Positions 40,701-46,700 of a stretch of DNA of 64,000 nucleotides are shown piece by piece (position 1 is the first letter of the stretch; each line of letters starts with the position of its first letter). The notes below the pieces were generated by a model. That model was given only the letters and a program-made list of their open reading frames with translations, had not been told where the DNA came from and did not search any database. The stretch lies in assembly GCA_030324005.1 (NCBI GenBank), contig JARDVH010000059.1:115992014-116056013 (forward strand). Direction: 5' to 3'. The DNA is from Negaprion brevirostris. Lineage: Eukaryota. A program made the translations under genes and the position numbers.

Positions 40701-43700
40701 CCTTTGTGGTCCCGTCAGTAAAAAAATGCATGTTTCATTTCAACAGCCCAAGGCTGCAGCAGAATGTGATGAAGGGGAGTAATCAAAAAGGTGGCACAGT
40801 GGCAATGTCAGCACCCGTAATCCAGAGGCATGGGATATGCGATCTATGAACCGCTTAGCAAGTGTGCCACCACCCTAAGACACCAGAGTGGGATTTTCTG
40901 GAATAAACTGGCGCTTTCAGGCAAACAGCAATACATATATTGACCTCCATGTTGATCACAGAACAAAGCAAAACATTCTAATTCTTACCTGGAGAAACAA
41001 GGGGCATCGCTGTAATGTTCCTGTTACACAGGTCATCACTGCAGCATTGCACGACAGAATGTTTGGAGTGAGAGAGCTTGCAGGACATTTCAACCTGCTC
41101 ACGGGTAGCAAAACAACCTTTCTGGAACACTGGACGTTCTCCATTTTGTGTGACTGAAGCAAAACACTGCAGACCCTTGCAAAGAGGCTCTGTTCCACAC
41201 GTACTGCCCTCACAGATGCACTGAACACTTGAGCTATCTTCTTTGTCACGCACACAAAAAAAAGAACAAAAGCACAAAGTTAATTTGGCCAAAGGAAACT
41301 TCATTAAATTCAACATTTCACATCNNNNNNNNNNNNNNNNNNNNNNNNNNNNNNNNNNNNNNNNNNNNNNNNNNNNNNNNNNNNNNNNNNNNNNNNNNNN
41401 NNNNNNNNNNNNNNNNNNNNNNNNNNNNNNNNNNNNNNNNNNNNNNNNNNNNNNNNNNNNNNNNNNNNNNNNNNNNNNNNNNNNNNNNNNNNNNNNNNNN
41501 NNNNNNNNNNNNNNNNNNNNNNNNNNNNNNNNNNNNNNNNNNNNNNNNNNNNNNNNNNNNNNNNNNNNNNNNNNNNNNNNNNNNNNNNNNNNNNNNNNNN
41601 NNNNNNNNNNNNNNNNNNNNNNNNNNNNNNNNNNNNNNNNNNNNNNNNNNNNNNNNNNNNNNNNNNNNNNNNNNNNNNNNNNNNNNNNNNNNNNNNNNNN
41701 NNNNNNNNNNNNNNNNNNNNNNNNNNNNNNNNNNNNNNNNNNNNNNNNNNNNNNNNNNNNNNNNNNNNNNNNNNNNNNNNNNNNNNNNNNNNNNNNNNNN
41801 NNNNNNNNNNNNNNNNNNNNNNNNNNNNNNNNNNNNNNNNNNNNNNNNNNNNNNNNNNNNNNNNNNNNNNNNNNNNNNNNNNNNNNNNNNNNNNNNNNNN
41901 NNNNNNNNNNNNNNNNNNNNNNNNNNNNNNNNNNNNNNNNNNNNNNNNNNNNNNNNNNNNNNNNNNNNNNNNNNNNNNNNNNNNNNNNNNNNNNNNNNNN
42001 NNNNNNNNNNNNNNNNNNNNNNNNNNNNNNNNNNNNNNNNNNNNNNNNNNNNNNNNNNNNNNNNNNNNNNNNNNNNNNNNNNNNNNNNNNNNNNNNNNNN
42101 NNNNNNNNNNNNNNNNNNNNNNNNNNNNNNNNNNNNNNNNNNNNNNNNNNNNNNNNNNNNNNNNNNNNNNNNNNNNNNNNNNNNNNNNNNNNNNNNNNNN
42201 NNNNNNNNNNNNNNNATCCCTGCACATTTACCCACTAATCCCTTTAGCCTACGCATGCCAGGACACTAAGGGGTAATTTTAGAATGGCCAATCAACCTAA
42301 CCCGCACATCTTTGGACTGTGGGAGGAAACCGGATGAATGAAACAGGGAATGTGACCAAACCACAATGGATATTAGAGGTAGCAATAGATCCAAGGAAGA
42401 GGCATAAAAATTGAGCAGAGAAAAAACAGAACTGAGATTTGGGAGCAGTTTAGAATTCAACAAAGGAGGACAAAGGAACTGAGAAGGTGAAAATAGAGTA
42501 TGAGTAAGCTTATAGCGAACATTAAAACTGACTCTAAAAGCTTCTATAGGTATGCAAAGAGAAAAAAATTGGTGGACAAATATAGATCGCTTACAGTCAG
42601 AAACAGGGGAATTTATAATAGTTCCATCATCACAAAGGAGGACACATATACCATACCAAAAATGCTGGGGAACACAGCAACCAGTATAACCTGGACAAAG
42701 TGGGGAAAATAATAGCGTAGACTGGTTCCCACATCCTGGCAGTGCCGCTAAAATTTTCTACAGTAAGTTAGTGATGCTACATAGAACATAGAGCAATGAA
42801 ACAAGTCATTCAGTCCAACTAGTCTGTTCATTTTCATACAGACCACACTCACCATATGCCTTGTCTACTTTCCGTTTGAAAGTATCTGAGCTGTTTGTCA
42901 CAATTACTTCCTCTGTAAGCAAGTTCCAGATTTCAACCACACTTGAGTAAATACAAGTCTCAACATTATTCCCTGTAGGATTTATGAACAGCTATCTTGT
43001 ATTTTTGGTGTCTACTCATTTTTGGATTTTTGGAAGAGGAACTGAAGGAAATCAGTATTAGTAGGGAAATGGTGTTGGGGAAATTGATGAATTGTAGGCC
43101 AATAAATCCCCAGGGCCTGATAATCTACATCCCAGAGTAGTTAAGGAAATGACTCTAGAAATAGTGGATGTATTGTTGGTCATCTTCCAAGATTCTATAG
43201 ACTCTGGAACATTTCCTACGGATTGGAGGGTAGCTAATGTAACTTAACTATTTAAAAAGATTGGAGAGGAAAAAAAAGAATTGTAGATCAGTCAGCCTGA
43301 AGTGAGTAGTGGGGAGAATGCTACAGTCTATTATAAAAGATTCAACAGCAGAGCATTTGAAAAAAAATCAGTAGAAGGATCGGACAGAGTCAGCATGGAT
43401 ATACAAAAGGAAAATCATGCTTGACAAATGTACTGGAATTTTTCAAGGATGTAACTAGTAACGTTGATGAAATTGATTCAGACTTTCAAAAGGCTTTTGA
43501 CAAGGTCCCACAAAATTAAAGCATATGGGATCGGGTAGTGTTTTAAAATAGATAGAAAACCAGTTGACAGAAACAAAGTGTAGGCATAATTAAGTCTTTT
43601 TCTCAAGTGGCAAGCAGTGACTAGTGGGGTACCATAGGGGTTATTGCTAGTATCTCAGCTATTTGCAATGTACGTTAATGATTTAGACGAGGGAACTAAA

Positions 43701-46700
43701 TGTAATATCCCCAAATCTACAGAGGACACAAAGCTGGATGCGAGGGTGAGCTGTGAGGAGGAAGGATGCAGAGATGCTTCAGTGAGTTTTGGACAAGTTG
43801 AACGATTGGGAAAATGCACGGCAGATATAGTATAAAGTGGATAAATTGGTAACAAAAGCAGGAAGGCAGATTAGCTAGATGGCTATAGATTGAGAAAGAG
43901 GTGTGCGTAACAAGATTTGCTTATCCTTGTACACCAGGCGATGAAGACGGCAAATGATATGTTGGCCTTCATAGTGAGAGGATACAAGTACAGGAGCAGG
44001 GATGTTTGCTGCAGTTAAACAAGGCCTTGGTGAGACCATACCTGGAATAGTGTGTACAGTTTTGGTCTCTTTACCAATTTCCTAGCCAGTCGATAATTTG
44101 CTATCAATACCCCTAGCGACTACTTCAATCACCTCTTCAAAATTCAATAAGATTCATCCAGGCTGACCTACCCTTTACAATACACGTATATATAGGAGAA
44201 ACTAAAAGATCACAAATTTCCAGTCAGATTACACCAAAAGGTTGTATAGCCCAAGGAGAAATTCAAGGCAACCAGTATAACCTGGGCAGAATGGGGAAAA
44301 TAATAGCATAGACTGGTTCCCACATCCTGGCAGTGCCACTAAAATTTTCTACTGTTAAGTTAGTGATGCTACATAGAATATGGTGCAATGAAACAAGTCA
44401 TTCAGTCCAACTAGCCTGTTTGTGTTTGTACAGACCACACTTACCATATGCTTGTCTATTTGAAAGTATCTGAGCTGTTTGTCACAATTACTTCCTCTGT
44501 AAGCAAGTTCCAGATTTCAACCACACTCGAGTAAATACATTTCTCAACATTATTCCCTGTAGGATTAGGAGCAGTTATCTTGTATTTTTGGTGTCTGCCG
44601 ATTTTTGGACTCAATCTCCAGATTTATGCTGCCCAGTCATTCATGAATTTTAAGACCTCAATCAGGGTGGCACAGTGGTTAGCACTGCTGCCTCTCAGCG
44701 CCAGGGACCCGGTTTCCATTCCAGCCTCGGGTGACTGTGCAGTTAGCCCATTCTCCCCGTATACACATGGGTTTGCTCTGAGTGCTCTGGTTTCCTCCCA
44801 CATTCTAAAGATGTGTGGATTAGGTTGATTGGTTATACAAAATTGATTCTTAAGTGTCAGGGGATTAGCAGGGTAAATAAGTGGGGTTACGGGATAAGGC
44901 CTAGTTGGAACTGTCGTCAGCTCAATGGGACGAATGGCTTCCTTCTGCACTGTAGGTCTTTTACGATCAGGTCATCTCTAAGCTTCTTTCCTAAACAGAA
45001 AAGCCTCAACCTTACCACAATTAATTCCATTTATGAAACAATCACTAGATCACAGTTATGATCAACTTACTAGTCAATCCTGGTGTCCAGCTCAGAACAA
45101 TAATATAAAGGCTGTGAGACAGTTCTACTTTTTTTGTTTCAACAACTTCCACTTACCTAAAAGAGATAGATGCTATCTCTTGTAATATATCAATGGTTTG
45201 GGGAGTGGTTGCCTCTGTCACATTTCCTTAGGTAGGGGCAAAACTTTCACATATACTATTCCATATTGCTTCCCAGGATGGACAAAAGTGGCAGCAGAAC
45301 GGAAACGTGTTTGCCCTCTCAGCAATGCATCATTGCAGCAGAGATTTTGCTGACATTTAAACCATAAGTAATAATCTNNNNNNNNTGCTTAATTTATCAA
45401 GTAGAACACATACAGTGTACAGTACAATAACATTCATACATTCTTGCACATCAGTAAGGCGTTTCGGTAATTCTGGACTTCAAATAAGAAGCGGTTAAAA
45501 TGATTTTAGAACCTGCATAAATTGCAATGAATGTCAATAATGTAGGCAGAGAAAAGATCAGAGACCCACTATTTATTTACACATTTTCCTTAGGCTGAGA
45601 AGATTTACACCTTTGACTGTATCTTTCCCTTTCATGTCAGCTTACATTTGTTAGACTTGTAGAAAAATGTTTAAATCATGCTGTTTGCCACTATTGTGCC
45701 AGAAATCTATGATTAAATTAGATTCAGCAATCATCAGTTAAACGTTCTAAGAGTTTTAAAAGTCAATTGAATTGGCTGCAACTGATTCTAAACTCATATT
45801 CTTGTAATTACTCATTTAATTCATTAAATGTTGATTTCATAAAGGAATAATCTTCAAGTTTAAAAATGGCTGTTGAACCAGACTGTTAAACATTCAAAAT
45901 ATTTATCAATTCAATGCTCTTGGGCACAACAATTGCAAATTACACCAATTTATTCTGGTAACAGCTCGGGGAATTTTAAACTGGGAAACACCCTTTCATT
46001 CATTGCAGCTGGATGCAAGGTTTTAATTGTAACAGTTCATTTTTCAAAAAGTCTAATACTCCTGGAGAGGTGCCCCAGCAAAACATGCTTTTGAAGAGTG
46101 ATTTCATTAGCCCAAGGCTGAAAGGAATCAAGACATCCTGATTCTTACCTAGTGAATGAAGCGGCATTACTGTCATGTTCCTGTTACACATATTTTCATT
46201 GCAGCATTGCACTACAGAACGTTTCGAGTGAGAGATCTTGCAGGACATTTCAACCTGCTTATGGGTCGTGAAACAACCCTTCTGGAACACTGGAACTTCT
46301 CCATTTTGTGTGGCTGAAGCGAAACACCATAGACCCTTGCAAAAAGGCTCTGTCCCACAAGTATGGCCCTCACAGATGCACTGAAGACTTGAGCCATCTT
46401 CTTCTACACACAAGGAAAAGGGGAACATTTGCGCAATGTTAGAATGACCAGAGGCAATTTTTACAATACTTTATAAAATGCAATTTTTTAAACCTTTTTG
46501 TGCACAAGTAAACTTGAAAAGTGCAAACTCATATTTCTATTGCATTCACTGAAACTGGTCAAACTCCTCTGCTGGGAAAGGGCTGTAAAGATTAATTTAA
46601 TTCACCTCTTCCTACCCACGCAAACATAGCTAAGCATCCTTATTCAAATAAAAGGTGAATGGAAAGTTCCTAGTATAGCCCACAATGGTGCGCCGAAATC

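Follow-up and report, generated by a model that had tools for sequence, protein, structure and literature searches.

Tandem multiplication of the receptor ligand-binding domain (LBD) has been described in ACVR1, ACVR1L, BMPR2 and TGFBR2, for which the text of PMC13187141 gives 12 events spread over bony fish, lungfish and tetrapods. In that account the outer LBDs of BMPR2 and zebrafish Tgfbr2a, which are old and diverged, repress signalling, and their faster drift is tied to this inhibition; outer LBDs that are nearly identical raise ligand binding. One of these genes, ACVR1L, is a paralog from the two early rounds of whole-genome duplication (2R) that sharks have and most tetrapods have lost (PMC5979292, PMC12122719). 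Here we report that a 64,000-nucleotide stretch of the shark Negaprion brevirostris genome (GCA_030324005.1, contig JARDVH010000059.1, positions 115,992,014 to 116,056,013; hereafter the window, whose own coordinates are used below) carries an ACVR1L gene with two LBD exons in tandem, an outer exon B and an inner exon A. Judged by sequence comparison, this gene extends known LBD multiplication to cartilaginous fish.

A first-pass annotation of this DNA had described two intact, in-frame LBD exons of phase 1-1 with GT-AG borders, ten cysteines and a glycosylation sequon, within a 590-aa frame holding two ectodomains and a 19-residue linker, and our analysis recovered this structure at the same coordinates. 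Both exons lie on the minus strand, B at 46403-46149 (255 nt) and A at 41240-40989 (252 nt), and each has AG...GT borders and an open frame that encodes ten Cys together with an N-x-T sequon. Phase 1, in which the signal exon (52541-52475) ends, is preserved across B and A, and the transmembrane (TM) exon opens at 21496; ten coding exons join without a stop into 590 aa comprising a signal peptide, one TM segment, a GS box (PF08515 match) and a Ser/Thr kinase in a single frame, with 19 residues between the last Cys of B and the first Cys of A. Both LBD exons exceed the cut-off of Pfam PF01064 (36.9 and 40.1 bits versus 20.9) and find their best PDB match in the human ACVR1 LBD (E 1e-17 for B, 1.6e-20 for A). 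They are 77% identical to each other in amino acids and 86% in nucleotides (37 of 252 nt differ). A DNA search of the genome placed the TM exon once, making it single-copy, and exon B three times. No third LBD copy was found in the sequenced part of the window, where an 891-N gap 84 nt upstream of A is unreadable, or genome-wide (five protein matches among 13 candidates; seven PF01064 matches among 15). The acceptors of B (46403) and A (41240) are both tandem (NAGNAG), with AGs three bases apart, and both AGs are used in the models of relatives (589 against an expected 590 aa; 505 against 504 aa), the downstream one being chosen in some Mustelus and Scyliorhinus isoform models.

The duplicated unit spans ~2 kb of downstream intron, over which 941 aligned nucleotides are 81% identical (Kimura two-parameter distance, K2P, 0.22). 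Substitutions show purifying selection on the exon pair: between B and A the nonsynonymous distance (dN) is 0.13 and the synonymous distance (dS) 0.30 (dN/dS 0.44), with nonsynonymous sites differing less than synonymous and less than intron sites (Fisher p 0.03 each). All ten cysteines and the sequon are retained in 8/8 ground- and mackerel-shark copies. The same outer/inner pair is found in gene models of Mustelus asterias (XP_078072656) and Scyliorhinus torazame (XP_072323487, GCB80671), and the outer copies of the window, Mustelus and Scyliorhinus form one clade (91/91). Since the pair is common to Mustelus and Scyliorhinus and the outer copies group together, the event predates the catshark split; the duplication is evidently old and not an assembly error. 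Whole-exon gene conversion in the window's lineage was considered and is unsupported (synonymous versus intron divergence, p 0.37). Short conversion tracts are hinted at by residues that the two copies share, in the window as in Mustelus.

The annotation had placed the gene in the ACVR1 family, which holds as far as the ALK1/2 class; the gene itself is evidently not ACVR1 but its TGFBR1-linked paralog ACVR1L, and a single-LBD ACVR1 lies elsewhere in the genome, on contig C31. Our gene tree comprised 37 intracellular regions chosen from 172 proteins and was unrooted, lacking an ACVRL1 outgroup, with acvr1l labels inferred from PMC10501582, PMC13187141 and PMC12122719. It separates 18 rows of ACVR1, from sharks, sturgeon and tetrapods and from the teleosts with multi-LBD proteins, with an approximate likelihood-ratio support (SH-aLRT) of 100 and leaves the window gene outside, within nine chondrichthyan rows (99); that side also holds acvr1l-type proteins of teleosts, among them the three-LBD protein of Scleropages, and those of coelacanth, lungfish, alligator and gar. 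A TGFBR1 LBD exon lies ~72 kb downstream of the window gene on the same strand, and the C31 gene, the second of ALK2 class, has one LBD exon that matches human ACVR1 at E 4e-35 versus 2e-20 for exon A. Tree position, the TGFBR1 neighbour and the closer-to-human C31 gene therefore together point to ACVR1L. Our data agree with the 2R origin of ACVR1L (PMC5979292, PMC12122719) and not with the origin in the teleost whole-genome duplication given in the text of PMC13187141.

Evidence on splicing comes from RefSeq isoform models, which are predictions, and from a retrocopied fragment. Among the matches listed (15 of 27 cluster members, the other 12 probably including several X1 forms) there are two-LBD models (XP_078072656, XP_072323487, XP_041045797) and inner-LBD-only models (XP_078072657/8, XP_072323489, XP_078396273), but no outer-only model. 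Both the two-LBD and the inner-only isoforms are predicted for Mustelus and Scyliorhinus; XP_041045797 is the Carcharodon two-LBD model, and isoform X2 of Cetorhinus is a model with a single inner-type LBD. The retro-fragment (L004:1434-1709, contig C42) is a fossil of the signal-to-outer splice in this gene. It is decayed, lies inside a repeat resembling a short interspersed element (SINE) and is 86% identical to exon B, and within it 60 nt of the signal exon run intronless into B through a precise join. At 29 sites diagnostic between B and A the fragment is B-like at 18, A-like at nine and neither at two. Five of the nine A-like sites are the five amino acid changes separating the window outer copy from that of Mustelus, and these are therefore ancestral outer states that Mustelus retains. 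The fragment stops inside B and bears on the signal-to-outer join only, not on B-to-A. DNA searches, with three places for exon B and one for the TM exon, found no further retro-pieces. From the models and the fragment we infer that both two-LBD and one-LBD mRNAs are probably made in N. brevirostris.

The numbering of human ALK2 maps gap-free onto both LBD copies. As given in the text of PMC12415261, Ser41, Asn60 and the next Asp of ALK2 contact BMP6, Met79 is the knob and was dispensable in that assay, Tyr74 is needed for activin A, whose response Y74A/V/E abolished, and ALK2-type LBDs have low ligand affinity. Both window copies carry T41, N60, G61 and M79, and shark ACVR1 retains Y74 and D61. 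Position 74 is H in the outer and R in the inner copy of the window, R in both copies of Mustelus and Scyliorhinus, and I versus H in Carcharodon. The two copies have thus probably both stayed BMP-type domains, and an ALK2-like grip on activin A is predicted for neither. As neither copy has Tyr74, a BMP/activin switch is unlikely, and the change of selectivity first proposed for the extra domain finds no footing. Outer copies have changed more than inner ones near the helix, at K75 in the window, at L71, K78 and Y80 in Scyliorhinus and at I74 and I79 in Carcharodon. An AlphaFold2 model of the 589-aa Mustelus form, from a 9-row alignment, reached a mean predicted local distance difference test (pLDDT) score of 31.8 and a predicted template modelling (pTM) score of 0.17, and no geometry was drawn from it.

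We put at about even chances the proposal that the outer LBD is a skippable cassette damping the BMP-SMAD1/5 output of the inner copy; beyond an exon that is intact, constrained and once spliced, this functional model is inferential throughout. The inner LBD would build the signalling complex beside the membrane, and the outer LBD, one domain further out and likely still able to bind BMP, would catch or shield ligand without positioning the kinase. The inclusion ratio of the outer exon would then tune BMP-SMAD1/5 gain, and the single-LBD ACVR1 would likely cover the ancestral role. With Heterodontus as outgroup, outer:inner relative-rate counts are 9:1, 7:1, 12:1 and 5:0, and this outer drift matches the inhibitory pattern in PMC13187141, thus supporting damping. 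Several observations weigh against the proposal. The four species in these counts are not independent, the counts with Rhincodon as outgroup are 6:5, 4:4, 10:5 and 5:1, so that the asymmetry is gone or not significant, and the changes between window and Mustelus (outer 5, inner 1) are not significant either (p 0.21). The isoform evidence consists of predicted models from other species, in which alone the outer-to-inner junction is seen, and the one- and two-LBD shark forms are known here from sequence alone. The inhibitory cases described in PMC13187141 are type II receptors; among type I receptors with several LBDs, medaka Acvr1 alone has been assayed, and it responded to BMP6 more strongly than receptors with one LBD (PMC10501582). 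With 77% identity between its two LBDs, the shark receptor sits between the repressing and the enhancing published classes.

The medaka result favours a different role, in which the outer LBD would give the receptor an additional BMP site of low affinity and increase capture and signalling at low ligand. The three-LBD medaka Acvr1 answered BMP6 and human ACVR1 and medaka Acvr1l did not (PMC10501582), ALK2-type LBDs bind ligand weakly (PMC12415261), tandem near-identical TGFBR2 LBDs bind more ligand (PMC13187141), and the shark copies do not differ at the mapped BMP6-contact positions. We nevertheless regard such boosting, the leading alternative to damping, as rather unlikely: enhancing pairs are 90-100% identical against 77% here, the outer copies are altered in the helix around the knob (K75 in the window; K78/Y80 and L71 in Scyliorhinus; I79 in Carcharodon), and the medaka comparison is one of different genes, not deletion constructs. 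More improbable again is a tolerated spacer, kept just to fold and hold the frame and having no adaptive signalling role. The dN/dS of 0.44 is high for this receptor, given that its intracellular part hardly differs from that of Mustelus, the outer exon can be skipped in frame and the paralog gives backup, but a useless skippable exon should decay, and this one is intact in three ground-shark lineages while the introns diverged by ~0.22 substitutions per site.

The difference at the Tyr74 equivalent, in the window and in Carcharodon, could be taken to mean that the copies differ in ligand class or serve as mutually exclusive alternatives. This we consider very improbable, given the lack of Tyr in either copy, the R shared by both copies in Mustelus and Scyliorhinus and, for mutually exclusive use, the missing outer-only model among the 15 of 27 cluster members listed. 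Least credible of all is an assembly artefact, whether two haplotypes or mis-scaffolding across the 891-N gap that separates the copies: a divergence of 14-19% is far above allelic, the 19% in introns being too large for alleles, the genome has one TM exon, and two other species show the same order with copy-specific orthology. The objections attached to the first description, that the copies were mis-scaffolded or that one was never transcribed, are thereby answered indirectly, by the orthologous pairs in the models of two species and by the retro-fragment.

Two or three LBD matches are found in 20 of the 172 proteins (18/141 plus 2/31). One-LBD ACVR1L models, which record absence in gene models and not in genomes, occur in Rhincodon, Stegostoma (X2 and X3 only), Chiloscyllium and Heptranchias, and in Leucoraja, Amblyraja, Pristis, Mobula, Hypanus/Hemitrygon, Narcine and Callorhinchus. 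With rays, carpet sharks and a chimaera thus among the one-LBD models, an earlier suggestion linking the extra domain to the cartilaginous skeleton finds no support. Carcharodon ACVR1L has two LBDs that differ at 10 of 83 residues, and its doubling may be either the ground-shark event or a separate lamniform one: approximately unbiased (AU) tests rejected none of the groupings, whether one of all outer copies (p 0.40), one of the lamniform copies (p 0.34) or one of the triakid-like copies (p 0.08). The ACVR1L LBDs of carpet, mackerel and ground sharks share a long branch (0.30, support 98/99), with changes around the helix and the loop after it that either preceded the duplication or were separate from it.

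Other doublings involve near-identical copies. Heterodontus francisci has ACVR1L models with two, one and zero LBDs (P0144, P0142 and P0143), the two copies differing by a single residue and grouping as sisters (94/89). A zero-LBD model exists for Stegostoma too (P0014). ACVR1 is also doubled, in Heptranchias model P0093, with copies two residues apart, and in Carcharodon isoform X4 (P0152), with copies identical over their shared part. Such pairs may have arisen recently, may be older and homogenized by conversion, or may be falsely duplicated. We tentatively suggest, with somewhat more doubt than confidence in the whole, that the ACVR1/ACVR1L LBD exon could be a duplication hotspot in sharks that the published survey missed, that Heterodontus ACVR1L and Heptranchias/Carcharodon ACVR1 would represent three to five further independent events, and that the resulting age series, from identical copies to 77%, would consist of type I receptors that set BMP sensitivity by splicing out zero, one or two LBDs.

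Feature coordinates of the ACVR1L gene within the window are collected in Table 1. In the intron between the LBD exons, a younger 350-bp direct repeat (44268-44609 and 42677-43026, 90% identical) flanks an apparent retroelement piece, and both of its copies are 61% like 38991-39443. Elsewhere in the genome, the C31 ACVR1 adjoins an ALK4/5/7-class gene, read as ACVR1C by elimination, and ACVR1B lies on contig C188 beside a third ALK1/2-class LBD. The three tandem pairs of ALK1/2-class and ALK4/5/7-class genes, ACVR1L-TGFBR1 (C59), ACVR1-likely ACVR1C (C31) and likely ACVRL1-ACVR1B (C188), are consistent with one ancestral pair that genome duplication multiplied. On contig C31 (L003:1731-1830), a run of ~100 N with the same 11 bases on both flanks interrupts the ACVR1 LBD exon, marking either a plain overlap gap or a collapsed repeat. 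Two more exons matching PF01064 (L018 and L020, contigs C132 and C154) we take to be BAMBI-like ectodomain exons.

Table 1. Exons, duplicated units and assembly gap of the two-LBD ACVR1L gene in window coordinates.
Feature	Coordinates	Strand	Evidence or remark
Signal-peptide coding exon, ATG at 52541, phase 1 donor	52475..52541	-	Matches N-termini of P0006/P0015
Outer (membrane-distal) LBD exon B, tandem acceptor, likely skippable cassette	46149..46403	-	PF01064, PDB; orthologous to Mustelus/Scyliorhinus outer LBD; retro-fragment junction
Inner (membrane-proximal) LBD exon A, tandem acceptor	40989..41240	-	PF01064, PDB; 1 aa from Mustelus inner LBD
Duplicated unit copy 1: exon B and ~1.9 kb of downstream intron, broken by repeat insertions	44224..46460	-	61-81% identity blocks to 38991-41301
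Duplicated unit copy 2: exon A and downstream intron	38991..41301	-	941 aligned intron nt 81% identical, K2P 0.22
891-N assembly gap between copies	41325..42215	.	
Juxtamembrane and transmembrane exon, genome single copy	21285..21496	-	
GS-box exon	16580..16679	-	
Kinase exon 1	14710..14856	-	
Kinase exon 2	12073..12348	-	
Kinase exon 3	11788..11985	-	
Kinase exon 4	8989..9119	-	
Last coding exon with stop	4656..4790	-	

The multiplication of LBDs in teleosts that the first-pass annotation had mentioned is published (PMC10501582, PMC13187141). No description of LBD doubling in a shark was found in the literature searched, in which subscription journals are thinly covered. The main text of PMC13187141 has the word "shark" once, regarding AMHR2, and no chondrichthyan term, the text of its four supplementary files has none, and its figures may list sharks; bioRxiv 10.1101/2025.03.13.642935, in its available text, concerns Acvr1b/Acvrl1 only. 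Shark two-LBD proteins are already in RefSeq, unremarked. The shark case would be at least the 13th LBD-multiplication event and the second independent one in ACVR1L, supporting the view that few receptor genes tolerate such multiplication. Natural one- and two-LBD isoforms of one type I receptor would also allow a clean comparison, the published outer-LBD tests being of type II receptors. According to PMC12122719, the fin and girdle of skates express acvr1l, and the gene is linked to ossification of the girdle in fish; a dose-tuning ACVR1L variant could bear on shark skeletal development.

Set beside the known systems, the shark exons share with human ACVR1/ALK2 (PDB 7YRU, 9N4K), their best structural match, the same Cys frame and an ungapped alignment, whereas the human receptor has one LBD and possesses the Tyr74 and Asp61 that both ACVR1L copies lack. 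The double-LBD TGFBR2 of chicken, horse and zebrafish and the triple-LBD BMPR2 of Notopteroidei and bichirs, as described in PMC13187141, are also built of tandem LBDs and resemble the arrangement proposed for the shark gene further in that one LBD is optionally spliced (chicken, horse) and the inner LBD is the signalling unit; they are, however, functionally assayed type II receptors with a two-exon LBD, whereas the shark receptor is of type I and known from its sequence. Teleost ACVR1 with two or three LBDs, such as medaka Acvr1 (PMC10501582, PMC13187141), is like the shark gene an ALK2-class type I receptor with exon-duplicated three-finger ectodomains, but groups with ACVR1 (SH-aLRT 100) and is the other paralog. 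The closest parallel in the text of PMC13187141 is the triple-LBD ACVR1L of bonytongues (Osteoglossidae; Scleropages model P0094), where the same paralog has multiplied the same phase-symmetric LBD exon in tandem with ACVR1 as backup. The bonytongue gene has three LBDs against two in the shark, a cartilaginous fish, and because gar, coelacanth, lungfish, ray and chimaera ACVR1L models are one-LBD, the two events are independent, in line with the separate shark origin first suggested for this locus.

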